Positions 23,799 to 44,651 of a DNA stretch of 61,688 nucleotides are shown in pieces. A model generated the notes under the pieces. It was given only the letters and a program-made list of their open reading frames with translations, made no database searches and was not told the DNA's origin. This DNA is from a virus. The stretch spans positions 1-61,688 of IMG/VR virus record IMGVR_UViG_3300035541_000081; one strand, 5' to 3'. The first letter of the stretch is position 1; the number at the start of each line of letters is the position of its first letter. The translations under genes were made by a program, and so were the position numbers.

Positions 23799-23924
23799 TT
23801 AAACTTGATTGTTTTTCCCGAATTTTTTCAAGGCCACGTCAACATTGTCAATCAGGGCGGCGGCGGCTTTATCCGTGCCGAAAATTTTCCCGACGGTTTC
23901 ACCTATGAATTTTAACCCGAACAT
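23799..23924 (-). CDS. 41-aa peptide downstream of the endolysin (MFGLKFIGETVGKIFGTDKAAAALIDNVDVALKKFGKNNQV)
   Basis: Not in the ORF track. Its ATG shares one base with the endolysin TGA (TGATG). Confidence 0.3.
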   Translation of the reverse strand: MFGLKFIGETVGKIFGTDKAAAALIDNVDVALKKFGKNNQV

Positions 23925-24478
23925 CACGCAGCGACCTTTTCAACGCGGTTGAGCCAACCGCACAAAAATTTCAGGTTGCTGTTGATATGGTCATCCCGGC
24001 GGCGGCTGTCACTTAAACAAATGTTTTTATAATGAAAAACTTTTGCCAGGCTGAATTCAGCTATAAATAGCCGTTCTTCACGCTCATCGGTTACATATGC
24101 CGCCATTTTTGCGATCGTTTTTTTACCCAGTATACCATCCGGGGTCGCACCGACAATCCGTTGTGCGATCTTTACGGACGTTCTAAGACCGGCATTCACG
24201 GCAAAATCATAAAGCACAAAGGCCACGCCCTGGAAACCAATGATGTCCCCATGGAGTTGGTCCCAGAAATGCGCCTTGTAAAACGTTCTCACCATGGATT
24301 CTATCCGGTCGCCCTGTGTTTCCCCAGCGTCAATTAACTGCCACCCTGTCCAATCCGGCCACGCATTTCGTGAGATACCGGCGTATGTCATGCCCCCACG
24401 ATCCCCAGGGACGTTGTGCAACCGATACCCGCCCTCAAGATGAATTACTTTTTCAAAACATAAATCAAAGTTTGCCAT
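23924..24478 (-). CDS. endolysin, GH108-type lysozyme with a PG_binding_3-like C-terminus
   Basis: FEKVIHLEGGYRLHNVPGDRGGMTYAGIS (EGGY...D-x-GG-x-T-x-x-GI signature). Confidence 0.8.
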   Translation of the reverse strand: MANFDLCFEKVIHLEGGYRLHNVPGDRGGMTYAGISRNAWPDWTGWQLIDAGETQGDRIESMVRTFYKAHFWDQLHGDIIGFQGVAFVLYDFAVNAGLRTSVKIAQRIVGATPDGILGKKTIAKMAAYVTDEREERLFIAEFSLAKVFHYKNICLSDSRRRDDHINSNLKFLCGWLNRVEKVAA

Positions 24479-28463: not shown

Positions 28464-29850
28464 TTATTCTCTTGTCCGTTCACGCTTGCTTGGACGGAAA
28501 GCCCGGCGAATACGAGACTTAATTGTTTGTCTGGTTATTCTGGGTACTATATCAGTCAATTCATTACTTTTCACCCTGGCATTGAATTTTTTCACTTCTA
28601 TGACAATATCCTGCCATTCATCCGGATTCTTTTTTGAAACCGGCTGGGCATGGTAACGAACAATCCGGCTGTAAATCCTGCGTTTCTTTTCAGCGTACTG
28701 CCGTTTCAGTTTGGTTTCATTCCACTGGATTTCACGGGGCTTTGCAATCTTGGTTGGATTTAACCCTGCGGCTCTCATGATACCGGTGCCAAGATCCCCT
28801 TGAACCTGTTCGTTGCCGAAAAACACCTGGTCACCGGCCCGGGTGGTGATGCCTTCGGAGGTTTCCCTATACGCTTTTGCTATATTGCCCATGGCCAGCG
28901 GGGTAATCTTCTCAACCCCTTTCAAATAGTTGCCCTGGGTGATATTAACCCCGCCCTGATAGATATTGCGCATCATGCCGCCAATGGGGCCCAGAACATC
29001 CAGCGGTTCTTTAAAGTCCGGCAGGCCTGGGGCAAGGGAGCCTTTCAAGGAGACCCCGGCCAGTCCGGGCAGTCCATACCGGGCAATATCGCCGCCGGAC
29101 TCGCCGAACATATCTTCAGCCACCTGGTAGATTTTTTCTTCGGGATCATCCTCGCCCATGGCCCTGAAGATCATCTGCACAACAGGCAACGCCAGGGAAC
29201 TGGCCGCCCCGCCGAATATCATAGGGGACAATATCATATATGTAGAAGCCGCCGCCTGTCGCCTGCCGATCATATAAGACAGCGTTGTCATGTAGTTGTG
29301 CATGAACGTTTGGAAAATATACATGGCCGATGCCGCCCGCAACCCCCGGCCTTTCCTGAGTAGTGCCGGTTGGTTCTCAACACCATAAATCCCGTGAGCC
29401 CTGTCAGATACGGTCTTTGCTTTTGACAAGGCATCCTCTTTGGACATGCTCGGATTTTCGGACATGATCCCCTTGTATGCCGCCAAAAGCGTTGTGCCAC
29501 GGTTGAACTCTTCCGTGATCTTAAACGGTGTCATGAGCAATTCAACCGCCCTGCCGTATTTCTGGGCCGGGCCGGATTTCAAGGCGTTGACGGTTTCCAT
29601 GTTCAACTGTGCCGCAACCCAGCCCCGTGAAAATATTTCCTCCAGGATTGCCCGGTCTGCATTTGGCACCGTTCCTTTTCCTGTGACAAAAGAGGCGTAG
29701 GATTTCCCGGCCTTTGCAATGTGCGTTGCTGTTTTCCTTAGCGGAACCCCGCCGTAAGCATCCATGGCCGCCGGAACCGTTGTGCCCATGGCGGTGAGGT
29801 TGATCGCCGCAGAAGACAGGCGCCCACCCAGGAACCACGCCGAGGCCAGT
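28464..29850 (-). other. giant ORF C-terminal region: multi-helix hydrophobic, tape-measure/ejectosome-like segment with a basic tail
   Basis: WFLGGRLSSAAINLTAMGTTVPAAM, LRAASAMYIFQTFMHNYMTTLSYMIG, YMILSPMIFGGAASSLALPVVQMIF, ARYGLPGLAGVSL. Coordinates approximate. Confidence 0.45.
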
Positions 29851-32800
29851 CCCTTCAGGGTGCTAATCACCCGGTCTGCCGCCTCATCGTTTTTGAGAAC
29901 ATTCTCAACAGCGTTTACGGCATCGGTGTATGCCCGTTTCTGCCGTTTCGGGTCAAGCATGTTGTCCTGGATATACTGCCGGTACTCTTTATGGATCTTC
30001 CCCCGTAGCCGGGCAAGTTCCTGGTGCGCGGCGGCGGCCTGGTCGTCATTTTTCCATTTCCTGATTTTTTCTTTTTCCCGGAACAGCGTTCCAATTCGGA
30101 ACAACCGGTCCTGCCTGGCCGCTTCTGATTCCGTGTTTACCCCTACCCGTTCCCGCTGCAACTCTTTAATTTTCTGGTCAATGGCATCAATCCGTTCATT
30201 TTCGGTTTTGGAGTTTTTCTGCATGGTCTTCAAGGATTCTTCCACGGCCTGGAGCGCATCATAATCCGGGTGTTGCTTCTGCCATTCATTCCAGGTGTAG
30301 TGCTGGCCGGTGATGGCCTTGGAGGTGTTCACGGCAACCTGCTGTTTTGCATAGCCGCCTGCCGCAGAGTTCACGGCCTGGGCAAGGGCCTTCAGCGGGT
30401 CGGTTTCATACCCCATGGGGACATCTTTTCCTGTGGCATCAGACCTGGAAATCATCCTGGCCCGGCTTCCCCGCGCTCTCAGGTCGTCAGCCAATTGATT
30501 GGCCAAGCTCTTGGCAATTTCAAATGAGACATCCGCATCTTGTCCCTGGGCCTGAAACAACGCATTTGTAACGATATCCGGCATGTCTTTGGGTGCGTTG
30601 TCAAAGCGATACCCAGGGGACCAACTATTTCCTCCGCGCCCCAGGTCTGAGTATGGCTGCCCCCCTAACTTTTTTAAAACGGATTCAGACCATTCGTAAA
30701 CCCCGCCCGCAGGCAATACATAGTCCTCTCCGCGCCACTCGCCGTTTATGCCCAAATCTTTGAGCGTCCGAAGCTTAGTGTCCAGCTTGGTTTCTGACAA
30801 TGCCTGGTTGACCATGGCCTGTGTGGAAAGGATGCTTTTCACATTCTGGTACACATCCTCGGACATGCTGCCGGTTTTTTCTACCTGAACAGTATATCCC
30901 TGGGATTCCATCTTACCGGCCAAGTAGTCGGCGGTTGATTTAAAATCCCGGTACTCAATAAATGGATGTTCGCCTTCTTTTTCCGCATAGACCCGCCAGT
31001 CACCATTAGACCGTTGCCGTGGAAAGTAATAAGACGACCGTTCGCCCATTTTGGACAGGGCTACCTTTAAGTTGATTCGGTTTTCACCTGCTTCAGTCCG
31101 GGTCACCACCTCCGGTAAGGTCAATCCCCGTTCTTCATACTCCTCTATAATGGACTCCCAGGACTCGGCATAAAAGTCATGGAGATTGGCCGTCACGGTT
31201 CTGAATGCCCTCAATGCGTCACGGGCGGCCGGGTCCGGATATTCATCAACTTCATACTGGATCGCCAGGTCACGGGCCTTGTTTTTCGTCAGTATCCCTT
31301 CTTCTAAAATGGATCGTTTGCCGGTGCGCTCGTCTTTCGGTGACTTTATTGTCCAGGTGCCGTCTTCATCTTGAATGAGCACCGCCCCGATTTGATTGAT
31401 ATCCCGGTCAACCAGGTACTCTTTAAGGTCGGAATAAGCGGCTTTGTTGTGCTTTTGCAAGTCCTCCATTGTGCCGATCATGGACTCTTCGCCGTTTTTA
31501 GACAATTCGTTTTCTTTCTGGAATTTCCATTCCGGCCGCTTCAATAATTCTTCAAAGGTTCTTTTTAATGCCGGGATACTTTCGGAATAGTGGGACATCA
31601 GACCCATTGTATTTTCAAGGACACCAATATCCTTCTTGTATCCAGGCCCCTTGTTCTTCCGGTTTTTAATTACATGCTGAAGGCCGGAAGCTATTTGGCC
31701 GTAGACTTTCTTTTTTTCACTTTCTGTTGGGGCTTTGGCGTCGTCTGATGTTTGGTATCGAATATCCGGATTGCTACCATCCCATGTGCCGCGATTTGCA
31801 ACTGACTTTACCTGTCCAGAACTAAAAACTGAAATCAATGGAGATGCCCCAGGAACTGGAATAATAATCGAATCATACCCACGCAACCTAAGCTTACGCT
31901 TTTTTATTATTGAATCAGTAACGGTTTCAAAACTTTGCGCTTCATCAAGGGACATCTTGTATGGTTTTTTCATTTGGAGATAAGCCTCGATAACATTACC
32001 GCTATCTTTGGCGTATGAATTGGCATAATCACGATCCATAGTGAAGAAGTGACCAAGTCCGGATGCTGTGTGTGTGGTGGACTCTCCTGGACGATCCTCA
32101 AAGACTGTAAATCTATTTGGAGATCCATGAAAAAAACTTACTGGTTCTCCAGATTTTGTTTTTGCCACTGAACCATCAAACCATTTTTTAAATGCTTCAC
32201 TGTCTGTGTTGCCTGCTGTTTGGAAATTCGGCGTACCTTTACTCAGCCCATTCGCCTCTCGCCCATAAATATCCCCACTCTCATATTCCCGGGCCAGCTT
32301 CCGGGCAGACTGCCGGCCGATGTGAACCAGTGCGTCAAAGAAATCCACAATCTTCTGAATTAGTGCGTTAACGTTGGACCCTTCCCGGTAATTGGCTCTA
32401 TCCGCAACAAGTTGGGCCAGGGTGTTGGCCTGGTTTTCCTCCATGTCTTCCTGGATGTCATACCGGTTCTTTTTCTGCGCCTTCAACATCTTTGTCAGAT
32501 TATTGAGCGTTTTCTCGTCTGCCGGGGTAATCATGCCCAGGGCTTTGAGCGCATGGTAGTTTTCATGGATAGCTGTTTCCATGTCAGCCATATTCGTATT
32601 CAGCGTAATTTCACCATCCTGGTATTTTCCAAGAATGACACCGTCGCGCTTCATCCTGCCGGATTCCATGGCAAAGCGGATATCATCACCGCCGATGTGG
32701 TCCACGGTCTTTATGCGGACACCCTTTCCGTTTGTGAAGCGGATGGATAGGATGCCGTCGGGGTTGGTGGTGATTTGCTGGTTTTTGTATTTGGATTTTA

Positions 32801-35800
32801 TTTGGTCGAGAGTTATGCCTTGACCTGGGGCTTTGTCAATTGTTGAGGCAGAGCTATACCGTGGATCTGTCTTTGTTAAATCAAACCGCTTGGATAATGG
32901 AATTGGGTTCCCGTTATCGTCATATGTCACAGGATCAAGGAGCTTGTGATGGAGATGATTGAATTGAGGGTCATATCCAAGTCGATTCAAGTCAAGAACA
33001 TTAAATTCCGTATCTTTGCTTTTATTCCATAATTGTTGAGGAACATCTATTTTCGCAAGGCGTTTATTTACTTCTTTTTGTGAAAGAATCTTGTTGATCT
33101 TTACAGAACCAGAAATATACCACTTCCCAAGTTCTGGCCGATCCTTGAATAATGGGTTGGTCGCATACTCATAATAACCACCTTTAGGTATTCTACGAAG
33201 TCCGGACAATGTCTTGTTTATGCTTCCATCTTTGTTTCGCGCTGCCGAATCTAAATATTCTTGTTTGTAATTGTAATCTGCATCCATTTCAACTTCTGCG
33301 ATCACGGTGTCAAACTCATGCACATTTGGATACGAATACCCATCAGGCACTTCAGGTACTAATTTTTTCTTTTTATTATTAAAGACAGCGTTTCCGGCTT
33401 GTGGGAAGAAGGGAACCTCGCCGCCATGCCACCCAGGGCGATAAGCGACGCTTTTTATACTTTTCGTTGTTGGTTTCTTAATATATCCACGCTTAAACAA
33501 CTCTTGCCGGACCTCGTCATTGGGTATTTTTATTGAAACTCCAGTATCCGCAGGGATATATTCTCTGCCATTGTCCGCTGTGAAATGGTAGCCCCCCTCG
33601 GTTGCGTCCATCCATTGGTTTATTGGCAACTCATCTTTAGCGCCAACGAACATGGGATATAGCTTGCCGTCACGCATCCTGAATGCCTTATAGACCTTTA
33701 CTGTTTTTTTAGGAGGCGACGTTCTCCTGATGCTAAACCCGGTTTCGTTCGTTTTTTCAAAAATTGGCGCACCCGATTTTTCTGCTGCTTCATTCACCAG
33801 TTGTTGCGCAGCTTCCATATCTCCACGCTGAATAGCGTCAAAATATTTCTTGTCCAGGGTTTTAGTGTCCGCATTTTGTTTATCGTCTGAGGTTTGATAT
33901 CGTATATCTGGATTACTGCCGTCCCATGTGCCGGTATTGTAGATAGATTTTATTTGGGTTGGTTCAAGTACACTTAAAACCTCTTGGCCATCCTCTTTAA
34001 AAAGAACGCCATCATACCCCAATGCTTTTAACGCTACAGGGTTTTCAAAAAATAGATATTCATGCCTTGCGTTTAAAGCTCGCTCTGTTTCTATATCAAG
34101 ATAATTGTTGTAATCTCCTCCCCAGGCATTCGGAGTTTCTTTTATACTTTTATTAAAATCTTCTTTGGACTTTATTCTTCCTGTTTTTCTTAAAAACTCA
34201 GTAACGGTATCTATTTCCCCTGAGTCAGCAAGTTCATGTGGCTTGAATATGTTCTCCGCTCTTATATAAACAGGTTTTACATGCAACCCTGGGGCAATCA
34301 TTCTATCTCCATCTTGAAAAACCCCATCTTTTTGACGCATTGCGACTCTTGTCCCGAATTCTTCCGCAAATTTTGATGTGAAAGCAAAAGAGAACATGCC
34401 TGTTGGCGTGTCATTTTCCATATTTCTGTTTTTATCAAACACGGTAAATGGATATATTGTTGCATGATAAACCACCAATGGCTTCCCTTCTTCATCCACA
34501 ATCTCAGAGTTCTTGAACCATTTCTTAAACTCTTTTGAATCCGTATTCCGCTTGTCATTTGATGTGGTAGGGATCTTAACGCCATCGGCAACATCACCCT
34601 CCAGGGCCTCATAAACAGGCATGTTATTCTCATCCATAACCTCCCGGTAATCAACAACCTCCTGGTTCTCGCCCTGCTTGACAATGAGATAATGCCCGTG
34701 TTCGCCCTTGCGGTGTCCGTCAACCTCCCACGGCTCACCCTTATAATAAACCTCCGTGCCGACCGGTGCCCCCTGGGCCAACCATGACGGCGGGGCATCC
34801 GGGTTGCTTTCCAGATCCTGTTCGAGCTGGTCCAAAGACTCTTTTTTGTTCTTTAACGCCTCTTCCTGGGCAAAGGGTTCTTTGACAACTTGTTTGAATT
34901 TGTCCAGGGCGTTTGTTTCTTCTGAAACCTGCTTCCGGGCATTATCCAACATGCTGGGAAAGTTTCTTGTTAAAAAATCAATACTCCCGGTCGCAGGCTT
35001 TATCGGATAGGACAAGTCACGCTCCAGGGTGTATGTATTCCCTTGTCCAACCGACCCGGACACCATGATGTCAAACCCGCGATACGTCCCAATGTTTTTC
35101 TTTTCGGTAAGACGCAGGCCCTGGGCAGATAGCTTCAATGACAGTTTTTCAAAAGCCACATTGGCTTTCTGTCGCTTGGTGTATTTCTTTCCGTCAATCG
35201 TGATGGACCACGGCTCTTTTGACACGGATTGATAGTGCGACATGTCGGATTGCAGACCCTTGACCCGGTCTTTAAGGTTGGGTAGGCGCCGCCCTTCGAT
35301 ATCCTTTATCTTGTTTTTTGCATCAACAACCCCCTGGCCATGGGTTCGTTCTTTCTTTTCCAGCTTATCAATGTCTTTTTTCAACTTTTCACGGATTAAA
35401 ATCCGGGCATCCCCGGCAGCTTCGGAAAAGGAAGAGTTGATTTCATCCAAATCTTTGCTGACCAGGTCAACGGCATCCCCTTCAATGGACCGGACTCCCT
35501 CTTTGGCCTTCAAAAAGTCAGTGATCATTTTTTGTTTCTTGGCCAATACCTGCCAGCGTCTGGCATCGATGCTTTCCGTGATATAGCGGTATTCAAGGAC
35601 CGTGTTCCACCGGTTCCCCTGCCGATGGCCCCGGCCATTGCGCTGTTCTAATTCACCCGGCATCCATGGGGCGTCAAGGTGGTGCATGGCCCTTAAATTT
35701 TCCTGCATATTCGTCCCGGTCCCCAGGGTGGAGGTGAGTCCAATCACCACCCGGATCTCACCTGAATTGACCTTGTTGGCAATTTCCAGGCGTTTCTTTT

Positions 35801-38800
35801 TGGCAACCGAGCTATTGACAATGGCTATCTGCTCTGCCGGAATTCCCCCTTCAATGAGTTTGTTCTTCAGATCCTTAGAGGCGTTGAAGGTGTCCACCTT
35901 GAACTTGGCCTTTCCACCGGCACCATCACTTCTTGACCGGGTTGCCTGATCGTTGTAGCCCTTATCCATGAAAATGACTTGGCTGGCTTTTTCATGCTCC
36001 TGGTAGTGTTTCAACACATTGGTTACACATCTATTTATTTTATTCCGGGGGTGGTCGGACAACTCCTTGTCATATAGTCGTGGATCAAACCCGGCCTTGG
36101 CCGCATCGGTTTCAATGATCACCGGATTGCGGGGATCACCTGATTTCATGATGTCCCTGCGCTCTTTCCCGGAAGCGTCCTTAAAGGACTTGGCCCGGTC
36201 AACAAGCGTTTGTAGGATACCCCGCTGTTCTTCGGACATGTCAGCGACTTCATTCACCAGCTTTTTATACGGCCTGCCGGAAGGATTGCCTTTATCCACC
36301 CGACCATTCACCAACTCATCCCGCTCGGCGTCGGTCAGGTCTTTGCTGTGCAGATCCTTTCCGTTTTTGGTTTTCCTGGGCACGAATTCCGGCATGTCCT
36401 CAGCAAAAACAATGTCCATATATTGACCGGCAAATTTCCGAAGTTCGGACACGTTATGAAAGCCTGATAGCCTGGACACCATTTCATAGTCACCGCTGGA
36501 TGTCCGTTCAATGTCGGATTCAACAGAAGCGAAGGTATTGAACCAGGAATCCCAGGACAGCACGTCAGCCTTTTCCATCTCGTTCGACATGACATATCTC
36601 ATGTGATTGTAGATTTCGTTCAACGTGTTTGTGATCGGCGTTCCCGTGAAAGTATGAACCCCTTTGCCGTTGTTCTGTTCCTTGACATAGGAGGTTAAAA
36701 AATTAAGCCCGATGCTGCGCCCTGACGCTGTCGTGTTCAACCCCTTCACCTTCATCTTGGTGGACAGCGGCGGCTTTTTGAATTCGTGAACCTCGTCAAC
36801 GATAAGCATATCAACTCCGAGGCTTTCAAACGGGATCGCGCCCTCCCGGCTTGCGGCCTGGGACTGTTTTTCAATGTTCTGTATAATCCGGTTCCGTTGC
36901 TTCACCATCTCTTTTGCCGTTGTGGCGCCACGGATTTTTTTCAATGCGTCTTCATCATCAAGTATGTGCTCAATGTCAAACCCCTCATCGGCGGCAGACG
37001 CGATGGCTTCTTCCTCAAGGGACATGATTTCATCCTGGGCCAGGCGATCCAGTGTTTCGCGGGACAGCGTCAGTCGATCCAGTAGAGAGTGCGGCAGGAC
37101 GACGGCATCCCAATCATCATTGGCGATTTGATACAATTTTTGATCAATGGTTTTCGGTGTGAGGTTATCAATATATAGAACCTTTGCGCCCGGGTACATG
37201 CTTTGGATGTCATCGGCGACGCTGGCGCTGTTTGCATTGTGTCCCAGGATCAACGGCTTTTTAGCCAGGCCGTAACGCCTGGACTCAACCGCAATGCCGC
37301 CCATCGTGAACGTCTTGCCGGTTCCAACCTCATGTGCATACAGCCCACGGCCATTGGCAACCCCGCGCCATATGGCATTGACCTGGTGTTTCCGCAGGTT
37401 GAACTCAGACTCCCCCATTTGCAGCATCATGCCGTCAAAGGACAGAAATGATCCATCATAGGCCGGGGTGGCCCAGGCGTTCATGGTTTCATTATAATGC
37501 TGCTCCAGGGCAACCCGCCGGTCAACATCTTTCCAGATCCAGTCCTTTAACGCTTCGCGGAAGGCATCCACCTTTTCATTTGCCGCAGCAGACGCCTCCT
37601 GGTCAACAAATTCGTTGCCATCCTCATCCTTTGACTTGATGGTGATGGTCTGGCCGGTAAAGGCTGCCTTGAGGATTTTGGTGAAGCTGGCCCTTGGCGT
37701 AGCCCAGATGGTTTTCACTTCCTGGCGTCCATCAATCTGACCGGCGTCATCAAATTTGACGATCCACCCATTGTTTGACGGCGTGATGTGAATACCCTTT
37801 GCAATGTCTTCGGGCAGGTTTGCCGTCTCAGTGATGAACTGCTTGTATGTTTCCGACGGTATCCAGGCGGCCCCAAGGTTCGCTTCGATATTGAAATACG
37901 GGATATCATCCGGTATGACGGCTTCCAGGGATTTAATGTTTCGATCCATATCAAGGCCGTCTTCTTTGGCCGCTTTGGCTTCCCGTAGTTTTTCGCGCAC
38001 ATTCCCGGACAGATAGATATCTTTCACCTCAAAGGTTCCGGCAGGCGTTTCAAACACAGCGTCTTTTTTGATCAGTTCAGCCTTGACCGCCTCGGGCGTT
38101 GTCCCGGCTTTTTCTGCAATGGCTTCAATGTCAACAACCCTGGCAACCTCATTGCGGGTCATGACAAAGGCATCGGATATGGAAGGATTCTTTATTTCGG
38201 CCTTTTGCCGCTGGGTGGACGCGGTGAATATCTTGGCCGGTTCATAGACGGGGTTTTCTTTTGTTCCGGTATTTTTTTCCAGGGCGGCCATGGCCGGGGC
38301 CATCGGATCGCCTGCCCGGACAAAATGTTTTAACGCAAACGACCCGTTCAGGTTGCCGTATTTTTTAACGAAGGCTTTATAAAGTTGGTTTAATATAGTC
38401 CTGTGGTTCTCTGCTGTTTTCTCGCCGTTGCGCTCAGCGTCCAGGAGCTTCCCGTACCGCTCCCGGATTCTGACCAGGGATTTTAACTCGGCTTCCCGGG
38501 CCGCCGTTTTTTTCTCATCTTTAACGCTGTACTTTAATGTATCGTCAAGCCTTGCAAGCCGTTCGCCCCTGACGATGTAGAGCCCGTTGTCTTTTATGGT
38601 GACGCTGTTCTGTCGCTCGGTGGTGTTGTTCGTGATATAGTTGACATGGTCAATTTGCCCCCGTTTGGTGAAGATGTTTTTCGGCAGGCGCTCTGTCAAG
38701 CTGCTCAAGACATCTTCATATCCCCGCTTGCGCTCAACAATCATGCCTTCCCGGCCTTGTGTTGTGCCGTGGCCAATGGTCATGTTCCCGAGAACATTTT

Positions 38801-41800
38801 CGGGCTTGTGGGTCCAGTATTCGTTTACCTTGATCTCTTTGCCGTCAGCGGCTTTACCAAGGACAGTGTTTTCAAGCCAGGCCGCGTCATGGTTGACGGC
38901 TGCGCCTTCTGCCCGTTTTTTGAGGATGATTACGTCGGCCACGACCTTTGTCCCGGCATATTTTTGGAACGCACCGGCAGGCATACGAAATGCGGCAACA
39001 AGATCTGCGCGTTTTTCCATTTGGCGTCGGGCTATTTTCCCCACCTTGTCCATGGTGCCCGAAGCGGTGATCCCGACAACAAGTCCCCCCTCCCGGACCT
39101 GATCCAGGGCTTTGACGAAAAAGTAATCATGCAGCGTCAAGTTATATTTGTTGTATCGTCGATCGGCAGGTCCCTGTGCATCAAACGGCCAGTTGCCCAG
39201 CACCAGGTCATAAAATTCATCTGCGGTCTTGCTGTCCTGGTATCCCATTTGCTGGATGTTCGCCTCCGGGTATAACATTTTTGCCATACCTGCGGTGGTT
39301 TCATCCAGTTCAATCCCGGTTAAGTCGCTGTTTGATTTTAAGCCCTTGGGCATCAAACCAAAAAAATTACCGACTCCCATGGAAGGCTCAAGGACACGGC
39401 CCCCGTTAAACCCGAGTTGCTTAACGATGTCCCAGACAGCGGATACGGTTGGTGGGTCCGTATAGTGAGCATTTCTGATTGACCTTTGTGCGGATTCCCA
39501 GGCAGACTTGCCCAGGTGCGATCTTAGCCACTCGCCTTCTTTGGCCCAGCCGTCTTTATAGGTTGGGTTTTCAAATGTGCCCTGGAACAACTCCTGGCCA
39601 AAAGAGCCCCACCCGATATATGCGGCCATGGTGTCGCGTTCTTCTGCGGTTGGGCGACGGCCTTCATTGGAGACTTCATTGAAGACCTCAATGGCCTTTT
39701 GATTTTTCTTGAATCTGACTTTCGGGGTTCCGCCGATTAACGCCTCGGGGTCTTCAATGTGATAGTTTTCTAATACTCTGTCGGACTCTCCGGGTATTCC
39801 TGTTCCTCTGGCTCGTTCTGCTCCTCCGGGTCCATTATCATCCAGTCCTGTTCCGCTTGCATCTTCGCGTCCGAACTGTTCATCCCGGCGGCCCTCAGCG
39901 CGTCCCACTCCTCCATCATCTTGCATTCCAGGACGTAGGCCGTTTCCTTCAACAGCCCCTGGCGCTTCAGATCCGCGTACATCTTCGGGCGCTGATGTTT
40001 CCAGAGTGTTATCAGATCCTGTTGTTTCGGGCTCGACATTGCTGGCCAACACTCCGTCTCGTCCTCCTGGAATCGTTTCACCGTCTTCTTGACCCAGGCT
40101 TTGTATTCCTGGTCTTCCGTCATTTTCTTGGGATTCTTGGGACTGATCATCGTTGACCTCCTCTGTTGTGGGTGTGGGTGCAGGCGTGGTTTCATTCTCT
40201 ATTGCGTCTGTCCCCTTGTCAAGGGTGTTCGATTCGGTCATCCCCGCAGAATCAAACCCCGGGAAGTGTCGAACTCCTTCATAGAAAGAGCGCAGGTACG
40301 GCTTGACGGACTCGCCAACATCATTAACCATGGCCTTGGAATATTCTGCAAAGGTCCGGGCACCGGCTTCGACATGATACCCGGCCAACTGGATACCGGC
40401 CAGCATGATTTCAGGATCTATCCCGGAATTTAGCTGGTTGCCGGATAGCTTTTTACGGAGGACTTCCCGGGCCTTGTCGGCTGCGTCTTTGGTAAATACC
40501 TTGTTCTTTGCGCCGTAATCAGCCTTGTTTTCCGTGTCAACAGGCTCGAACTTTTTAAAGTCTTCCGGGAATCGCTCTTTCCCTGGCACACCTTTGAGTG
40601 TAAGCATCCCATTCTTTGATATGCTTTTAATTTCAACAGGGTCTTGTGACGCGAATGGATGTTTTTTAGAATCAATATCAAGGACAACCTTATCACCAAC
40701 CTTGAAGCCTTTTTTTGTCGGGTCTTCTTCATATGTTACTTCTTGTCGGGTTGAGGCTCCTGTTCTTCCGGGATCTTCATCGCGTCCTTGATCGCTCCTT
40801 GCAGTATCGCCCGTTTCGCTTCCCGGGACTCTTCCTTTGTCGGCCTGTTCTTCAAATAAGTTTTGCTGCTTGTCTTCGTACTTTTCATGTAAAAACTCCT
40901 TGGCGGTTTCAATTAGGTCTTTTGATGTTAACGTCTTCTTTGTACCAAACATTTCAGCTTGTGCCAAGTCCGCGATATACGCACGGAGGCGAACGCCTAT
41001 AGAATCAAAAAATTCACCAATTCGTTTTCCGCTCCTGATATTATCTGCCAAAAACTGAGCAATGGCCGTCACTTCTTCACTGGGGCCACCACCAAATAAG
41101 TCTCCCTGGTCAATTGTCTGGCGTAATTGTGCTTGTAGAGCTGTCCGACCGTTCCCCGCCTTAATGTCCGGATACTCTTTTTTTGCCCTGCGTAACAATT
41201 CAATGCCGTCAACGATATCATTGACAATGCCAATGTCGGCAAGATCCTTGTCAAGGCCACGCGCCTTCACGAAATTAGACGCCCCATTGGTCAGGCCGTT
41301 TAAGATGTTTTTAATGTCAGTGCTTGCTTCTTCCGCAGATAGCTTTAATAATTCGTCAGAGTTGTACGCTTTCTGGAACACGGCGGCCTGAACCCGGTCT
41401 ATCAACTGTTTATTGGCTCGGCCATCGTCTGTAATATATCCTGACCGTTCTTCAGGAGACATTTTATCAAGAAACAGATCAATAAATCCTTTATTCGTTG
41501 CAGCCATTAGGTTTCCGTCCTGGTCTGGCCTGAACATAGCCAGATCATCAGAGGATAGATTACCGGCATCCACTATGGCCTGCTCGGTTGAGCTCATCTT
41601 AGCAATGTCTGTTTCGTTTGCTTTTTGGGCAAAAGAAACGAGGTCGCCTATCTTTTCCGGGTCAACCACTCGAATCAAAACACCATCTGTATCGGTCCCA
41701 AAATTATCTGCATTTTGATCGAAATATTTTAAATAAGCACTAAGCTTATCGTTGGTTTGTGCTTTTCGTAAGGCCATCGTTCTGGCGTTGCCTGAAATGA

Positions 41801-44651
41801 TAACGTATCTTGGGATGCCATTTTTATCAACCCCACGAGGGATAGCTATTGGTGCGCCATGGGATACACTTGTACTTCCTGCCAATCTTTCCGGGTTTGG
41901 ATTATCTGCAATCTTGTCAACCTGCACAAGTGACATTATCCTTTTTCTATCCCTTGGCTGCAATTCTTTAGGATATTCTGGATTTGGCTCCATAGTATCG
42001 TTATGGGATGTGATAAGGCTTTCTACGGGAACTCTATGATATTCAAACTCGATGGGCGTATTATCGTTTAGGTATGTGGTGCCCGACTTGGTCCCGACTT
42101 GGTCCCGGCTTGGTCCCGGCTTAGTCTCTGTTTGTGAACCACTAACCATATCAGGATAATCTTTTAGCACAGAATCAGGAACTTTTTTTCCATTCAGTGG
42201 AATCTGATGTGACTTTCCATCCTTGGTCGTAACGGTCAGTGCATCAAATGTAATTTCTTTTCCCGCAAAGGATTTATCCCCAACATATTTCTTGCCTTCG
42301 CCCTTCTTGACATAGGCAATCGTGGCATGTGGCATATAATCAAAGGTTTCACCCTTTGGCAAAGATATGTCAGCTTCCTGCTCAATTTTTTTATTCAGTG
42401 CGTGTAGTTCCGGGCTGTCCACCTCGACCTTGACCACGTCGTATTTGTCGTTTTCAAAAATGGAAACATCGCCCATCTTGGCTGTGATCGGAGGATGGTT
42501 TCCAATAATGGGAGCAACGTCCATGGGTGTATTGGTTTTAAGTCCATACTTAACAGTTATATGTGGCTCATCCTCTCGGCCATAGGAGGAGTCGTTTGGA
42601 TCTGTATAAATCTCTGAGTCTGGGATGTTCTTGGCAAAAGCACGGATTTCATTTGCGTCTTTGGTTGGAATGTCTACCTGGGTGCTGCTGTGGTCGTAAA
42701 TTCTATTGTTTTCAGAAGCCTGCTGATCCTCAACCACCGTCAATTTCCTTTCCGGCATGATGGAGTTCGCGCCACTGTCAAGGGTGATGTGCCAGTTCTT
42801 CCCATGTTTTTTGTTCAGGGTGCCAAAGAACTCTTTACCCTTTTTATTTTTCCAGGTTACGGAGGTGCCTGGAGTCATGGGGGTGTCTGTGGTGGTGATT
42901 TCATCGGTCATGGGGGTGACTGTGGACTCTTTTTGAGCCTCAATGACTTTACTCCCCTTAATCCCGCCAGGGGCCTGTTCATCAACAATACCGGGGCCGA
43001 TTATATTTCCAACATCATCCGGGGTAATCTCCGGTCCACCCGCGTTGTCAATGTCCAGATTTGCGTAAAGACTCTCAACCTCATTGTCTTCCATCTTCGG
43101 AATATCGGCCATGTCCTGTGGCTCTTCTGTCTCAAATAGGGATTCTGTCTCCGGGATGGCTTCTGCTTGCTGTTCTTCCTCAACGGACACCGCCTGACTT
43201 GGGACAACATCCACTGGTACCGCCTGCTCTGCTGTCTCAGGTGACGCCGAGTCCGGTGTCTCAACGATTGTTGACGGTTCAGGTGTTTCGGTTTCCTCCA
43301 TTTGCTGTAAAACACCACGCGCCTGCACAAGCTCTTGTAGGTATTGTTCAATCCTATTTTTTTGTGCATCGGTTGGGTTTTGAAACTCAGATAGATTTTT
43401 TACTTTGGTTTCCAGCTTGGCCACATGTTCAACAACCCGACCTTTTTCCACTTCCCGGGCGCCTGCCTGACGAACCTCCTCCTCCATTGCGGCAAACTCA
43501 ACAAAGTTGCCGTTAATGTCGATGGTTTCCCCCTGGTCAATGCGATCCATGGCCATGTCCGCAAAGGCTTTGGCGTTTTCTTTCCCTTCCGGGGTATTAT
43601 CCGCGTCAACAATGGCTTTCTCCAGAGCCTCAACGGCTTTCTCCCGGGCCTGGGGATTTTCCATATCATTTAACTGCCGCTTCAATGATCTTTTCTGAAC
43701 TGTTGTCATGGCCCCGGAACCAACTCCGAAAAGCAAACTCATGGTGATAGCCGGTATGATTGCTTCCGCTGCCGCTTCTTTCCACGCGCCTTCCTCTGCC
43801 AACCCTAAACCGGTTTCAACCTGCATACCGAGGGCTTCCTGCACCATCTCCGTGGGCACTTCTAATAACGTGTTTTTGGAAAATCCTTTGGCCCATTCTT
43901 TGGCAGGGGTTTTTAGCAGTTCGTTAATGCTTTGCTTGAGCGGCTGGGATACCAGCTTGTCGACCTTAAATATCTTTAACCCGATATAGCCGGTCACAGC
44001 CTCAATGCCACCTTCTATAAATCCTTGCTTTAATGCCGCTTTGTGAGCGTCTTCTTCATTGATGCCATGGTCAAGGTATTCCTGCTTCTTTTCCCCGTAT
44101 ACGCCCAGGCCAAAAAGCCCAAGGTTCCCAAGAAATCCACCGGCCAGCGCACCGGCCGGACCACCGAAAGCAGTCCCAACGGCGGCACCGGCAAACGTCG
44201 GCGCAAGCGAAGGCACAGAAGACCGAACGCCACCCTTCCAGCCGCGCGAAAAGAAGTTCTCACCGGCGGCCTCGGATTCATCCAGTTTCATGATATCCAG
44301 GCTTTTGGATTTGTCTGCCATGTCAACCAGACCCTGGCCGATGTTCTCAACAACGTCCAGTCCACCATCAGGATCTATCGTTTTCAACGCATACCCGCCC
44401 ATCCGGGTAAGGTCTGCCGCGCCCCGGGCAAGGTTGGATGCTACATCCCCAACAAACCCGCGCTCAGGGGAAACACCGCCTTTTGCCTGAATCGGCCCTG
44501 GCGCATATTGTTCCTGGTCTTCAAACAAATCTCGATAACCCGGCGCATTGTCCCAGGCAAGCTTATGTTTTTTTTCCAGTTCGTCCGGGTCTTGTTTACT
44601 GAACCTGTCAAGGATTCCGCTGTTTATGTCGTCGTCTGTTAGGTATGGCAT
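28464..44651 (-). CDS. giant multidomain 'polyvalent' virion/ejection protein (5,395 aa)
   Basis: Uninterrupted 16,188-nt ORF in the late operon. Ordered catalytic motifs of 2H phosphoesterase, ParB-like, N6-MTase, SNF2 helicase, ART-like x2 and HExxH, with hydrophobic N- and C-terminal regions. Confidence 0.9.
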   Translation of the reverse strand: MPYLTDDDINSGILDRFSKQDPDELEKKHKLAWDNAPGYRDLFEDQEQYAPGPIQAKGGVSPERGFVGDVASNLARGAADLTRMGGYALKTIDPDGGLDVVENIGQGLVDMADKSKSLDIMKLDESEAAGENFFSRGWKGGVRSSVPSLAPTFAGAAVGTAFGGPAGALAGGFLGNLGLFGLGVYGEKKQEYLDHGINEEDAHKAALKQGFIEGGIEAVTGYIGLKIFKVDKLVSQPLKQSINELLKTPAKEWAKGFSKNTLLEVPTEMVQEALGMQVETGLGLAEEGAWKEAAAEAIIPAITMSLLFGVGSGAMTTVQKRSLKRQLNDMENPQAREKAVEALEKAIVDADNTPEGKENAKAFADMAMDRIDQGETIDINGNFVEFAAMEEEVRQAGAREVEKGRVVEHVAKLETKVKNLSEFQNPTDAQKNRIEQYLQELVQARGVLQQMEETETPEPSTIVETPDSASPETAEQAVPVDVVPSQAVSVEEEQQAEAIPETESLFETEEPQDMADIPKMEDNEVESLYANLDIDNAGGPEITPDDVGNIIGPGIVDEQAPGGIKGSKVIEAQKESTVTPMTDEITTTDTPMTPGTSVTWKNKKGKEFFGTLNKKHGKNWHITLDSGANSIMPERKLTVVEDQQASENNRIYDHSSTQVDIPTKDANEIRAFAKNIPDSEIYTDPNDSSYGREDEPHITVKYGLKTNTPMDVAPIIGNHPPITAKMGDVSIFENDKYDVVKVEVDSPELHALNKKIEQEADISLPKGETFDYMPHATIAYVKKGEGKKYVGDKSFAGKEITFDALTVTTKDGKSHQIPLNGKKVPDSVLKDYPDMVSGSQTETKPGPSRDQVGTKSGTTYLNDNTPIEFEYHRVPVESLITSHNDTMEPNPEYPKELQPRDRKRIMSLVQVDKIADNPNPERLAGSTSVSHGAPIAIPRGVDKNGIPRYVIISGNARTMALRKAQTNDKLSAYLKYFDQNADNFGTDTDGVLIRVVDPEKIGDLVSFAQKANETDIAKMSSTEQAIVDAGNLSSDDLAMFRPDQDGNLMAATNKGFIDLFLDKMSPEERSGYITDDGRANKQLIDRVQAAVFQKAYNSDELLKLSAEEASTDIKNILNGLTNGASNFVKARGLDKDLADIGIVNDIVDGIELLRRAKKEYPDIKAGNGRTALQAQLRQTIDQGDLFGGGPSEEVTAIAQFLADNIRSGKRIGEFFDSIGVRLRAYIADLAQAEMFGTKKTLTSKDLIETAKEFLHEKYEDKQQNLFEEQADKGRVPGSETGDTARSDQGRDEDPGRTGASTRQEVTYEEDPTKKGFKVGDKVVLDIDSKKHPFASQDPVEIKSISKNGMLTLKGVPGKERFPEDFKKFEPVDTENKADYGAKNKVFTKDAADKAREVLRKKLSGNQLNSGIDPEIMLAGIQLAGYHVEAGARTFAEYSKAMVNDVGESVKPYLRSFYEGVRHFPGFDSAGMTESNTLDKGTDAIENETTPAPTPTTEEVNDDQSQESQENDGRPGIQSLGQEDGETIPGGRDGVLASNVEPETTGSDNTLETSAPEDVRGSEAPGAVEGNGLRPGMQDDGGVGRAEGRRDEQFGREDASGTGLDDNGPGGAERARGTGIPGESDRVLENYHIEDPEALIGGTPKVRFKKNQKAIEVFNEVSNEGRRPTAEERDTMAAYIGWGSFGQELFQGTFENPTYKDGWAKEGEWLRSHLGKSAWESAQRSIRNAHYTDPPTVSAVWDIVKQLGFNGGRVLEPSMGVGNFFGLMPKGLKSNSDLTGIELDETTAGMAKMLYPEANIQQMGYQDSKTADEFYDLVLGNWPFDAQGPADRRYNKYNLTLHDYFFVKALDQVREGGLVVGITASGTMDKVGKIARRQMEKRADLVAAFRMPAGAFQKYAGTKVVADVIILKKRAEGAAVNHDAAWLENTVLGKAADGKEIKVNEYWTHKPENVLGNMTIGHGTTQGREGMIVERKRGYEDVLSSLTERLPKNIFTKRGQIDHVNYITNNTTERQNSVTIKDNGLYIVRGERLARLDDTLKYSVKDEKKTAAREAELKSLVRIRERYGKLLDAERNGEKTAENHRTILNQLYKAFVKKYGNLNGSFALKHFVRAGDPMAPAMAALEKNTGTKENPVYEPAKIFTASTQRQKAEIKNPSISDAFVMTRNEVARVVDIEAIAEKAGTTPEAVKAELIKKDAVFETPAGTFEVKDIYLSGNVREKLREAKAAKEDGLDMDRNIKSLEAVIPDDIPYFNIEANLGAAWIPSETYKQFITETANLPEDIAKGIHITPSNNGWIVKFDDAGQIDGRQEVKTIWATPRASFTKILKAAFTGQTITIKSKDEDGNEFVDQEASAAANEKVDAFREALKDWIWKDVDRRVALEQHYNETMNAWATPAYDGSFLSFDGMMLQMGESEFNLRKHQVNAIWRGVANGRGLYAHEVGTGKTFTMGGIAVESRRYGLAKKPLILGHNANSASVADDIQSMYPGAKVLYIDNLTPKTIDQKLYQIANDDWDAVVLPHSLLDRLTLSRETLDRLAQDEIMSLEEEAIASAADEGFDIEHILDDEDALKKIRGATTAKEMVKQRNRIIQNIEKQSQAASREGAIPFESLGVDMLIVDEVHEFKKPPLSTKMKVKGLNTTASGRSIGLNFLTSYVKEQNNGKGVHTFTGTPITNTLNEIYNHMRYVMSNEMEKADVLSWDSWFNTFASVESDIERTSSGDYEMVSRLSGFHNVSELRKFAGQYMDIVFAEDMPEFVPRKTKNGKDLHSKDLTDAERDELVNGRVDKGNPSGRPYKKLVNEVADMSEEQRGILQTLVDRAKSFKDASGKERRDIMKSGDPRNPVIIETDAAKAGFDPRLYDKELSDHPRNKINRCVTNVLKHYQEHEKASQVIFMDKGYNDQATRSRSDGAGGKAKFKVDTFNASKDLKNKLIEGGIPAEQIAIVNSSVAKKKRLEIANKVNSGEIRVVIGLTSTLGTGTNMQENLRAMHHLDAPWMPGELEQRNGRGHRQGNRWNTVLEYRYITESIDARRWQVLAKKQKMITDFLKAKEGVRSIEGDAVDLVSKDLDEINSSFSEAAGDARILIREKLKKDIDKLEKKERTHGQGVVDAKNKIKDIEGRRLPNLKDRVKGLQSDMSHYQSVSKEPWSITIDGKKYTKRQKANVAFEKLSLKLSAQGLRLTEKKNIGTYRGFDIMVSGSVGQGNTYTLERDLSYPIKPATGSIDFLTRNFPSMLDNARKQVSEETNALDKFKQVVKEPFAQEEALKNKKESLDQLEQDLESNPDAPPSWLAQGAPVGTEVYYKGEPWEVDGHRKGEHGHYLIVKQGENQEVVDYREVMDENNMPVYEALEGDVADGVKIPTTSNDKRNTDSKEFKKWFKNSEIVDEEGKPLVVYHATIYPFTVFDKNRNMENDTPTGMFSFAFTSKFAEEFGTRVAMRQKDGVFQDGDRMIAPGLHVKPVYIRAENIFKPHELADSGEIDTVTEFLRKTGRIKSKEDFNKSIKETPNAWGGDYNNYLDIETERALNARHEYLFFENPVALKALGYDGVLFKEDGQEVLSVLEPTQIKSIYNTGTWDGSNPDIRYQTSDDKQNADTKTLDKKYFDAIQRGDMEAAQQLVNEAAEKSGAPIFEKTNETGFSIRRTSPPKKTVKVYKAFRMRDGKLYPMFVGAKDELPINQWMDATEGGYHFTADNGREYIPADTGVSIKIPNDEVRQELFKRGYIKKPTTKSIKSVAYRPGWHGGEVPFFPQAGNAVFNNKKKKLVPEVPDGYSYPNVHEFDTVIAEVEMDADYNYKQEYLDSAARNKDGSINKTLSGLRRIPKGGYYEYATNPLFKDRPELGKWYISGSVKINKILSQKEVNKRLAKIDVPQQLWNKSKDTEFNVLDLNRLGYDPQFNHLHHKLLDPVTYDDNGNPIPLSKRFDLTKTDPRYSSASTIDKAPGQGITLDQIKSKYKNQQITTNPDGILSIRFTNGKGVRIKTVDHIGGDDIRFAMESGRMKRDGVILGKYQDGEITLNTNMADMETAIHENYHALKALGMITPADEKTLNNLTKMLKAQKKNRYDIQEDMEENQANTLAQLVADRANYREGSNVNALIQKIVDFFDALVHIGRQSARKLAREYESGDIYGREANGLSKGTPNFQTAGNTDSEAFKKWFDGSVAKTKSGEPVSFFHGSPNRFTVFEDRPGESTTHTASGLGHFFTMDRDYANSYAKDSGNVIEAYLQMKKPYKMSLDEAQSFETVTDSIIKKRKLRLRGYDSIIIPVPGASPLISVFSSGQVKSVANRGTWDGSNPDIRYQTSDDAKAPTESEKKKVYGQIASGLQHVIKNRKNKGPGYKKDIGVLENTMGLMSHYSESIPALKRTFEELLKRPEWKFQKENELSKNGEESMIGTMEDLQKHNKAAYSDLKEYLVDRDINQIGAVLIQDEDGTWTIKSPKDERTGKRSILEEGILTKNKARDLAIQYEVDEYPDPAARDALRAFRTVTANLHDFYAESWESIIEEYEERGLTLPEVVTRTEAGENRINLKVALSKMGERSSYYFPRQRSNGDWRVYAEKEGEHPFIEYRDFKSTADYLAGKMESQGYTVQVEKTGSMSEDVYQNVKSILSTQAMVNQALSETKLDTKLRTLKDLGINGEWRGEDYVLPAGGVYEWSESVLKKLGGQPYSDLGRGGNSWSPGYRFDNAPKDMPDIVTNALFQAQGQDADVSFEIAKSLANQLADDLRARGSRARMISRSDATGKDVPMGYETDPLKALAQAVNSAAGGYAKQQVAVNTSKAITGQHYTWNEWQKQHPDYDALQAVEESLKTMQKNSKTENERIDAIDQKIKELQRERVGVNTESEAARQDRLFRIGTLFREKEKIRKWKNDDQAAAAHQELARLRGKIHKEYRQYIQDNMLDPKRQKRAYTDAVNAVENVLKNDEAADRVISTLKGLASAWFLGGRLSSAAINLTAMGTTVPAAMDAYGGVPLRKTATHIAKAGKSYASFVTGKGTVPNADRAILEEIFSRGWVAAQLNMETVNALKSGPAQKYGRAVELLMTPFKITEEFNRGTTLLAAYKGIMSENPSMSKEDALSKAKTVSDRAHGIYGVENQPALLRKGRGLRAASAMYIFQTFMHNYMTTLSYMIGRRQAAASTYMILSPMIFGGAASSLALPVVQMIFRAMGEDDPEEKIYQVAEDMFGESGGDIARYGLPGLAGVSLKGSLAPGLPDFKEPLDVLGPIGGMMRNIYQGGVNITQGNYLKGVEKITPLAMGNIAKAYRETSEGITTRAGDQVFFGNEQVQGDLGTGIMRAAGLNPTKIAKPREIQWNETKLKRQYAEKKRRIYSRIVRYHAQPVSKKNPDEWQDIVIEVKKFNARVKSNELTDIVPRITRQTIKSRIRRAFRPSKRERTRE
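31740..32140 (-). other. giant ORF: ART-like module 2
   Basis: SFFHGSPNRFTVFED...GLGHFFT...ISVFSSGQVKSVANRGTWDGSNPDIRYQTSDD. Coordinates approximate. Confidence 0.4.
32350..32800 (-). other. giant ORF: HExxH zincin-like metallopeptidase motif region
   Basis: METAIHENYHALKALG (HENYH coded at about 32547-32573). Domain limits approximate. Confidence 0.4.
33895..34480 (-). other. giant ORF: ART-like module 1
   Basis: PLVVYHATIYPFTVFD...LSVLEPTQIKSIYNTGTWDGSNPDIRYQTSDD. Coordinates approximate. Confidence 0.4.
35560..37420 (-). other. giant ORF: SNF2/DEAD-like helicase
   Basis: LRKHQVNAIWRG, YAHEVGTGKTF (motif I, about 37305-37335), MLIVDEVHEF (motif II, about 36781-36810), LGTGTNMQ...APWMPGELEQRNGRGHRQGN (motifs V/VI). 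Confidence 0.85.
38900..39780 (-). other. giant ORF: gamma-class N6-adenine DNA methyltransferase
   Basis: Motif I VLEPSMGVGNFFG (about 39365-39395) precedes motif IV LVLGNWPF (about 39183-39200). Confidence 0.7.
41600..42060 (-). other. giant ORF: ParB/Srx-like nuclease/NTPase domain
   Basis: IEFEYHRVPVESLITSHN ... PRYVIISGNARTMALRKA. Coordinates approximate. Confidence 0.5.
42079..42122. repeat. 11-bp tandem repeat x4 inside the giant ORF (g[tg/gt]cccg[a/g]ctt)
   Basis: gtgcccgactt ggtcccgactt ggtcccggctt ggtcccggctt. The unit length is not a multiple of 3. Encodes KPGPSRDQVGTKSGT. Confidence 0.9.
42150..42690 (-). other. giant ORF: 2H phosphoesterase (LigT/Acb1-like fold) domain
   Basis: Two H-x-T-x motifs: EPHITVKYG (His codon 42561-42563) and MPHATIAYV (His codon 42327-42329), 78 residues apart. 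Confidence 0.6.

Follow-up and report, generated by a model that had tools for sequence, protein, structure and literature searches.

The window analyzed here, the whole 61,688-nucleotide stretch of viral DNA held in IMG/VR as record IMGVR_UViG_3300035541_000081 (positions 1 to 61,688 of that record), carries on its minus strand a single open reading frame (ORF) for a protein of 5,395 amino acids (aa). By its domains and homologies, this giant is a real member of the known family of giant DarB-like/PLxRFG polyvalent proteins of temperate ~60-kb podophages, within which it falls into a branch known mostly from metagenomes and divergent in its end domains; what is new in it, as judged from the same comparisons, is only the exact combination of cargo and the divergence of those ends. 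We consider it probable, at about 0.75, that the protein is made late, packed in the head and ejected to counter bacterial defenses, a reading that builds on its domain content and on analogy with its homologues. A polyvalent protein is a single phage or mobile-element polypeptide that joins 2–15 diverse domains, including the hub domains MPTase, ADP-ribosyltransferase (ART), SNF2 ATPase, N6-adenine methyltransferase (N6A-MTase) and DdrB-ParB (PMC5512222).

The giant gene and the ends of the window that define its genome are as follows:
28464..44651, minus strand: the giant ORF, with an ATG start, 5,395 aa plus a stop and no internal stop, coding for the polyvalent DarB-like/PLxRFG-type protein
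1-56 and 61633-61688: an exact 56-bp terminal direct repeat, recognized from the identical ends of the window

Identity of the two ends over these 56 bp means that the assembly closes into a circle of 61,632 bp, on which the genes for TerL and the portal adjoin across the junction. The giant ORF makes up 26.3% of this unit, and its product has a predicted mass of 599.8 kDa and a pI of 5.7. A model that had earlier seen only the letters and their ORFs (hereafter the sequence-only reading) had described one uninterrupted 16.2-kb minus-strand ORF taking about 26% of the genome, and both statements hold. Independent copies, recovered by looking up two small flanking genes in public assemblies, served as a check for chimeric assembly: the ORF is reproduced in 12 contigs, which come from seven or more samples (JGI 3300035039, 3300035051 and 3300035531; Logan SRR11800389, SRR11801822, SRR11797395 and SRR11802436) and two pipelines, at 99.99–100% identity and with no stop or gap. 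The contig pieces covering ORF nucleotides (nt) 1–9972 and 6480–16188 share a 3.5-kb overlap. Three contigs (from JGI 3300035531 and Logan SRR11797395) start or end at ORF nt ~7784, i.e., window position ~36868 in the helicase region, while four others span it; this shared break may reflect microdiversity among strains of the populations at that point. The sole internal DNA repeat of the ORF is 56 nt long at 84% identity. Because the contigs agree with each other and read through nt ~7784, a short-read misassembly or hidden frameshift is very unlikely. The ORF must be real in itself too, as random sequence could not remain open over 5,395 codons and homologues span nearly its full length. At the nucleotide level, megablast of the giant ORF against 50,697 phage records returned zero matches.

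Membership in the family is most directly visible in the methyltransferase (MTase)-helicase core. The profile phrog_10089 ('DarB-like antirestriction', 4,647 positions) aligns through its positions 1135–3228 with aa ~1259–3317 at E = 0 and 1,365 bits, and tblastn with aa 1301–3300 reaches 152 phage records, the best of which are giant single ORFs in phages of ~58–63 kb. Over aa 1375–3350 the core is 29–46% identical to the giants of BcepIL02, PEp14, SopranoGao and USP_25, and over aa 1595–3297 it is 27.6% identical to that of Y7. These deposited relatives are:
USP_25 gp31: 4,899 aa, core identity 46%
PEp14 gp27: 4,914 aa, core identity ~31%
BcepIL02 gp70: 4,667 aa, core identity ~29%
SopranoGao gp6 ('PLxRFG protein'): 4,369 aa, core identity ~31%
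Pseudoalteromonas Y7 ('DarB-like'): 4,675 aa, core identity ~28%

A further giant, of 3,372 aa with ParB, ART and tail-700 domains, is found in the Shewanella phage Y11; BLASTP of the core against it gives no match. Pfam searches of the relatives bring up LPD3, LPD23, LPD37, LPD38, LPD39 and ART-PolyVal, families of the LPD and ART-PolyVal kind that were built from Iyer et al. 2017, together with an N-terminal SLT domain in BcepIL02, PEp14 and SopranoGao. No SLT domain was found in the window protein by Pfam, PHROG or NCBIfam, and as USP_25 lacks it as well, it is not universal in the family. In the relatives the giant gene stands last in the morphogenesis module with the lysis genes next to it, and the window shows the same synteny. 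The product of one homologue, gp69 of phage JC1 (4,515 aa, 22.1% of the genome), has been identified through 51 unique peptides in CsCl-purified virions (PMC9144972).

From N- to C-terminus, the window protein can be divided into the following modules and linkers, all on the minus strand:
43422..44474, minus strand: N-terminal all-helical 'head' domain, aa ~60–410, with two Gly-rich hydrophobic helices at aa 150–184 and 297–315 (hydropathy)
42858..43349, minus strand: acidic Pro/Thr/Glu-rich low-complexity linker, aa ~435–598 (composition scan)
42252..42605, minus strand: 2H phosphoesterase domain, aa ~683–800 (Pfam 2_5_RNA_ligase2, E 1.2e-9)
40851..42053, minus strand: P1 DdrB-like region, aa 867–1267, including a ddrB-ParB domain at aa 863–995 (Pfam ddrB-ParB, E 2.5e-22)
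40227..40529, minus strand: ~100-aa pre-MTase domain, aa ~1375–1475, which contains FKVGDKVVLDIDSKKHPF and precedes the MTase in all relatives
39738..40283, minus strand: long Gly/Glu/Asp/Pro-rich low-complexity linker, aa ~1457–1638 (composition scan)
38802..39554, minus strand: DarB-type N6-adenine DNA MTase domain, aa ~1700–1950 (phrog_10089, phrog_11801)
35292..37403, minus strand: SNF2/DEAH-type helicase, aa ~2417–3120 (Pfam ResIII, SNF2-rel_dom and Helicase_C; P1 DarB matches)
33888..34496, minus strand: ART-PolyVal module 1, aa 3386–3588, ending in TGTWDGSNPDIRYQTSDD (Pfam PF18760, E 9e-17)
32853..33866, minus strand: module X, an uncharacterized mobile domain of ~335 aa, aa 3596–3933 (55 homologues)
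32256..32828, minus strand: HExxH (zincin-like, MPTase-type) module, aa 3942–4132, with HENYH at aa 4029 (motif conservation)
31746..32174, minus strand: ART-PolyVal module 2, aa 4160–4302, ending in TGTWDGSNPDIRYQTSDD (Pfam PF18760, E 1.7e-20)
28467..31214, minus strand: divergent tail-700/PLxRFG-type C-terminal domain, aa ~4480–5395, with a hydrophobic helix at aa 5140–5162 (NF032893)

Much of this string had been recognized in the sequence-only reading, which listed a Gly-zipper hydrophobic segment, 2H HxTx motifs, a ParB-like motif, N6-adenine MTase motifs I and IV, a SNF2-type helicase motif set, two ART-like modules, an HExxH motif and a hydrophobic C-terminus, and each of these is recovered here by profile, alignment or hydropathy. 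The Gly-zipper segment lies at aa 150–184 and is conserved among homologues, and both HxTx motifs of the 2H domain are present (EPHITV and MPHATI). The MTase has motif I as LEPSMGVGNF and motif IV as NWPF, the latter aligned with 10 relatives that have NxPF and with NVPF of P1 DarB, and the helicase has motifs I, II, III and VI as GTGKT, DEVH, TGTP and QRNGRGHRQG. The wider assignments of that reading, to the polyvalent class of Iyer et al. 2017 and to a P1 DarB-like MTase-helicase core, are likewise sustained, the former by the domain set and the virion neighborhood and the latter by phrog_10089, BLASTP to P1 DarB and the motifs just named.

With the Dar system of phage P1 (DarB, 2,255 aa; DdrB, 995 aa) the window protein shares two parts. 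Its aa 867–1267 are 33% identical to aa 40–441 of DdrB (E 4e-51), a match limited to the N-terminal ParB-containing part of DdrB that leaves the C-terminal peptidase region unmatched, and its MTase and helicase blocks are 24–28% identical to DarB, with 28% for the MTase against DarB aa 91–297. The pre-MTase domain between them is 50% identical to that of USP_25 and 43% to that of Y7, and matches sub-regions of phrog_938 and phrog_10691. In P1, DarB and DdrB are internal to the capsid and co-ejected with the DNA, both being needed in the EcoB/EcoK branch that counters type I restriction (PMC12810830), and DdrB helps the incorporation of DarB into the capsid (PMC9024508). The P1 proteins are, however, separate polypeptides in a myovirus and are loaded via DarA/Hdf, whereas in the window protein their homologous parts are fused with many other modules and with membrane-type ends. 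No homologues of DarA, Hdf, DdrA or Ulx were found in the window (tblastn, E <= 0.01), so that head loading must differ from that of P1. A further idea, that the fusion of DdrB with DarB is new, was rejected, as the Y7 and Y11 giants already contain ParB.

Upstream of this core, the 2H domain has as its best sequence match in the PDB the anti-CBASS phosphodiesterase Acb1 (9q2g_A, E 8.5e-4), and the alignment includes both HxT motifs. Acb1 is a 2H phosphodiesterase of T4-like phages, to which the domain is likened here by sequence; the Acb1 proteins known so far are small and stand on their own, not as parts of a giant multidomain protein. The Pfam Acb1 model (PF23474) scores the domain at 14.5 bits (E 0.029), under its 27-bit cutoff, and for this reason the domain is filed only as a member of the 2H superfamily.

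Downstream of the core, both ART modules keep the His of strand 1 and the Asp of strand 5, and in both, Phe stands in the place of Tyr, which is also the case in many homologues. The two modules close with an identical 18-aa peptide, TGTWDGSNPDIRYQTSDD, at aa 3571–3588 (33888–33941) and aa 4285–4302 (31746–31799), where the DNA is 84% identical. Peptides related to it, (N)PDIR(Y/F)(S/A/Q), also end module X and, in homologous giants, terminate ART modules as well as modules of other types; the peptide may be a junction or processing signal. Module X itself has as invariants an RPGWH motif, two Glu, one Asp and a TNP motif; some of its homologues are free-standing proteins of ~390 aa, and others are fused to an XkdF-type protease, ART-PolyVal, PF15644 or PF14359. 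Its AlphaFold2 (AF2) model is confident (pLDDT 90.5, pTM 0.88), and Foldseek finds no match for it in the PDB (best E 0.22, TM at most 0.09). A PDB profile search likewise gave nothing, no Pfam family matches, and in BFVD its matches are confined to uncharacterized viral proteins. The neighboring HExxH motif is kept in 10 of 10 homologues of its module (one as HExxxH), plus a downstream Glu, a combination described as the zincin signature of polyvalent-protein MPTases (PMC5512222). The module has no match to a Pfam model, and the Pfam LPD and MPTase-PolyVal models give zero matches to the giant protein even at E <= 5.

The two ends of the protein are of a different nature from the enzymes between them. 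The N-terminal domain belongs to no Pfam or PHROG family; tblastn of its first 420 aa against the 50,697 deposited phage records returned zero matches, and a single-protein search of IMG/VR for related loci found none. A word-indexed search gave two proteins and its profile repeat five, and a wider set came from an exhaustive search of representatives, according to which the domain heads 278 protein clusters, many of 2,000–5,484 aa. Among 147 retrieved proteins with this domain, 26 also end in a tail-700 domain, and the cargo between the ends varies: ART (19), HExxH (11), DdrB (6), MTase-helicase (5) and 2H (3). Every module of the window protein recurs in other proteins. On such comparisons, the conserved ends that bracket freely shuffled cargo amount to a chassis-plus-cargo organization. 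The AF2 model of the N-terminal domain is all alpha (pLDDT 76), and Foldseek against the PDB yields no significant match, the weak ones falling on membrane helical bundles and on alpha-pore-forming toxins, and searches of the PDB by profile and by sequence, with this domain and with the C-terminal 916 aa, gave nothing meaningful. The hhalign alignment of the domain with the N-termini of the SLT-less giants of USP_25, Y7 and Y11 is colinear at a probability of 60% and E 8.7e-5, pointing to a probable remote homology. Those three giants share among themselves, within their N-terminal 420 aa, a domain that is ~50% identical, has Gly-rich hydrophobic helices and is apparently unannotated.

At the other end, the NCBIfam model NF032893 ('tail-700', ~680 aa) matches aa 4879–5384 at 120.3 bits (cutoff 100) through its positions 148–666 only, as against full-length matches of 663–774 bits in five deposited relatives. 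The C-terminus is 22–23% identical to the C-termini of PEp14, SopranoGao, USP_25, Y7 and Y11. The exact PLxRFG motif is absent; aligned with it is a degenerate equivalent, YFPRQRSNG at aa 4542–4551 (FPRQRSNG at aa 4544–4551), and the metagenomic clade shares YFPRxRxxG, whereas PEp14 and SopranoGao have YFPLARFG. By these measures the tail-700 domain of the window protein is a divergent branch.

Set against its nearest counterparts, the window protein appears as a variation on an existing plan. The giant of Y7 (vB_PalP_Y7, OR791114), from a genome of ~58 kb, has the same order of N-terminal domain, DdrB-ParB, pre-MTase, MTase, SNF2 helicase, ART-PolyVal and tail-700, the last as a full match; it differs in being only 22–43% identical, in having one ART and a canonical tail-700 (676 vs 120 bits) and in lacking the 2H domain, module X and HExxH. 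USP_25 gp31 (vB_PaeM_USP_25, a Pseudomonas phage, MT491208) is the closest relative in the core, at 46% over 1,883 aa, is also without SLT and has ART-PolyVal, tail-700, a syntenic upstream gene of 620–630 aa and lysis genes next. It has, however, LPD23 and a single ART and lacks 2H, DdrB-ParB, module X and HExxH, and its N-terminal 1,376 aa show no BLAST similarity. The Lessievirus giants Bcep22 gp75, BcepIL02 gp70 and JC1 gp69, together with PEp14 gp27 and SopranoGao gp6, are similarly single ORFs, of 4,369–4,914 aa, which occupy ~22–24% of podophage genomes of ~60 kb and have the DarB-like core at 29–31% identity. Unlike the window protein, they start with SLT and carry LPD3/LPD37/LPD38/LPD39 cargo in place of 2H, DdrB-ParB, two ARTs, MPTase and module X, and in BcepIL02 the C-terminus is LPD38, with no NF032893 match. 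What is particular to the window protein in these comparisons is thus the lack of SLT, the divergent ends, the extra 2H domain, the second ART, the HExxH module and module X.

With the polyvalent proteins of Iyer et al. 2017 it shares the hub domains MPTase, ART, SNF2, N6A-MTase and DdrB-ParB as well as 2H, the late/virion context and a predicted delivery along with the DNA; its N-terminal domain, module X and particular domain string lie outside the Pfam LPD/PolyVal families, and unlike N4 virion RNA polymerase, the experimentally studied giant injected example, it has no RNA polymerase module. The suggestion of the sequence-only reading that the protein, by its size and domain string, may be undescribed is not supported by these comparisons: PHROG 10089, the NCBIfam PLxRFG/tail-700 models, the Pfam LPD families and published virion proteomics already exist, versions of 4,369–4,914 aa are deposited, Y7 has the same ParB-MTase-helicase-ART-tail700 order, and a metagenomic relative reaches 5,484 aa. 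That last protein (P0130), with the same two ends, also led to rejection of the view that the window protein is the largest of its kind.

The surroundings of the giant gene are marked by the following genes:
2615..4162, same strand as the giant gene: TerL, across the circle junction
59390..61201, same strand as the giant gene: SU10-type portal
56766..57734, same strand as the giant gene: major capsid protein
45659..47521, minus strand: conserved 620-aa gene upstream of the giant gene (phrog_10969, E 8e-90; syntenic with USP_25 gp29 by tblastn)
23924..24478, minus strand: endolysin with GH108 and PG_binding_3, marking the lysis region after the giant gene, as in relatives

In order of transcription on one strand, the head part runs from TerL through the SU10-type portal, a Tad2-like gene, the major capsid protein and an SU10-type adaptor to a head-closure protein, and then onward through ORFs of no assigned family (29–33% GC), the 620-aa protein and a 312-aa protein to the giant gene, five small or unassigned ORFs and the GH108 endolysin. 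The 620-aa protein matches 42 deposited phage records including USP_25, 37 of them from Pseudomonas phages and some labeled 'structural protein'; its homologue USP_25 gp29 lies two genes upstream of the USP_25 giant gene. Thus, the giant gene sits in a late/virion neighborhood, with portal, major capsid protein, SU10 adaptor, head closure and the 620-aa protein upstream and the endolysin downstream, and the earlier placement of it in a virion module is upheld by the same-strand genes on both sides. The tail-fiber genes that had been expected to follow it are not confirmed: the next five ORFs, of 139, 618, 192, 139 and 128 aa, give zero family matches, and the endolysin comes after them, 4 kb downstream.

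Taking the ORF, the domain identities, the conservation of catalytic motifs, the synteny and the family membership from the window, and drawing on homologues and the literature for how the protein is packaged, ejected and processed, what it targets and what its end domains do, one may picture the action of the protein as follows. A few copies would enter the capsid and would be ejected, necessarily unfolded, via the portal and the short tail, before or with the DNA. The two end domains would form the conserved chassis, most likely serving capsid incorporation and/or envelope insertion and translocation. Once inside, the DdrB-like ParB region and the DarB-like MTase/SNF2 helicase would protect the DNA that enters against type I restriction, as their counterparts do in P1, while the two H-(Y/F)-D ADP-ribosyltransferases would act on host proteins and the 2H phosphoesterase might degrade 2'-5'/cyclic (oligo)nucleotide immune signals or handle RNA ends. 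The HExxH peptidase would cleave the polyprotein into working pieces, and module X would be an effector of unassigned activity. Such roles for MPTase, ART, ParB, SNF2, N6A-MTase and 2H domains, namely ADP-ribosylation, 2'-5'/cyclic nucleotide degradation or RNase action, and autoproteolytic release, have been predicted by Iyer et al. 2017 (PMC5512222).

Packaging and injection are preferred because a homologue has been found in purified virions. Together with the DarB-like core, the ARTs and the position of the gene, this makes an injected counter-defense device the best reading, which is the part of the earlier proposal that stands; the other part, a fusion to tape-measure-like machinery, falls away, as no tape-measure signal is present and the neck genes are SU10-type, i.e., podovirus-type. 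The tape-measure candidate was rejected on the same grounds, its sole match being PhageMin_Tail at E 0.92. Several points weigh against the device as drawn. The N-terminal SLT, on which a role in wall breaching and ejection is based in most relatives, is absent, and the end domains are without structural relatives, so that the role given to them is a guess. The score for tail-700 is low (120 bits, with 663–774 in relatives) and the PLxRFG motif degenerate, the catalytic Tyr is Phe in both ART modules, and the 2H domain lies under the cutoff of the Acb1 family. Further, the model requires that a chain of 600 kDa leave a podovirus head.

A more elaborate form of the proposal, to which we give limited credence, is that of a self-processing 'effector polyprotein'. 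Here the internal HExxH peptidase would cut at the (N)PDIR(Y/F)(S/Q/A) junctions and free the effectors, either within the head or once injected, among them an Acb1-like 2H domain that would destroy cyclic-oligonucleotide signals before phage gene expression and a new-fold module X with anti-defense activity.

It is unlikely, though with some arguments in its favor, that the main role is structural, with the protein acting in ejection or as an internal-core component comparable to T7 gp16 or the P22 E-proteins and building a trans-envelope conduit for DNA, the enzyme modules being relics or accessories. The conserved ends with hydrophobic helices around variable cargo would suit such a part, the gene is located where ejection proteins lie, relatives start with an SLT domain as does T7 gp16, and every related phage retains the giant gene despite its cost (PMC9144972). 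Yet the MTase, helicase, 2H, HExxH and ART (His, Asp) modules have all kept their catalytic motifs, which argues for active enzymes; moreover, SLT is absent in the window protein, and no similarity in sequence or fold to any solved ejection protein is seen. A structural and a counter-defense role are in any case not mutually exclusive.

Rather less probable still is that the giant stays unpackaged, as a cytoplasmic late enzyme complex that would methylate or remodel progeny DNA and modify host proteins. In principle, replicated DNA could be a substrate of the MTase-helicase core, and the packaging of the protein in this phage is taken from its homologues. However, JC1 gp69 is present in purified virions, DarB and DdrB of P1 lie inside the capsid and are ejected with the DNA, and the gene itself is part of the virion module, flanked by the gene for the 620-aa protein (annotated as structural in some relatives) and by the lysis genes; module X homologues fused to XkdF-type prohead-protease domains similarly suggest capsid targeting. 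Finally, the view that several genes were turned into one ORF by chimeric assembly or hidden frameshifts has next to nothing left to recommend it, as against the short-read metagenome origin of all the supporting assemblies and the three contigs that break near ORF nt 7784 stand the agreement of the 12 contigs, the four that span this point, the lack of a long internal DNA repeat, homologues that support nearly the entire length of the protein, and isolated phages with unbroken ORFs in the same module order.

Apart from the giant gene, a few features of the same region deserve mention:
58875-59390, minus strand: Tad2-like gene of 171 aa directly downstream of the portal gene (Pfam PF11195, E 2.4e-24, aa 76–171)
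~46000-54000: low-GC island with 6–7 ORFs of the same strand, flanked by the head-closure genes and the 620-aa gene, with 29–33% GC vs 44–54% elsewhere
47531-49429, minus strand: 632-aa ORF in the low-GC block with a C-terminal CAP/SCP (cysteine-rich secretory protein) domain (Pfam PF00188, E 1.4e-13)
25897-27753, minus strand: 618-aa ORF directly downstream of the giant gene, with no Pfam or PHROG family

The Tad2-like (Thoeris anti-defense 2) protein in the block of head genes might act as a sponge of gcADPR immune signals. None of the ORFs of the low-GC island match phage families, and one of 453 aa has no tblastn match in the 50,697 phage records. The island resembles a tail-fiber or host-range cassette acquired by recent exchange from a low-GC donor. 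A CAP/SCP domain in the virion module of a phage is unusual. The 618-aa ORF has a single weak tblastn match, in a phage contig from human feces.

Giant virion-borne polyvalent proteins represent a poorly understood route by which counter-defense enzymes are delivered ready-made along with the phage DNA, and real functional data in this class are limited to P1 DarB and the N4 virion RNA polymerase. The window protein leaves the current picture of the class unchanged. It is among the largest and most cargo-rich versions, and one in which homologues of the cooperating P1 proteins DdrB and DarB are fused. As such, it gives candidates for new anti-defense activities, namely the weakly Acb1-like 2H domain and module X with its confidently predicted fold, which together with the junction peptide are its most noteworthy parts, and it would be useful for studying how a chain of 600 kDa is packaged, processed and ejected.

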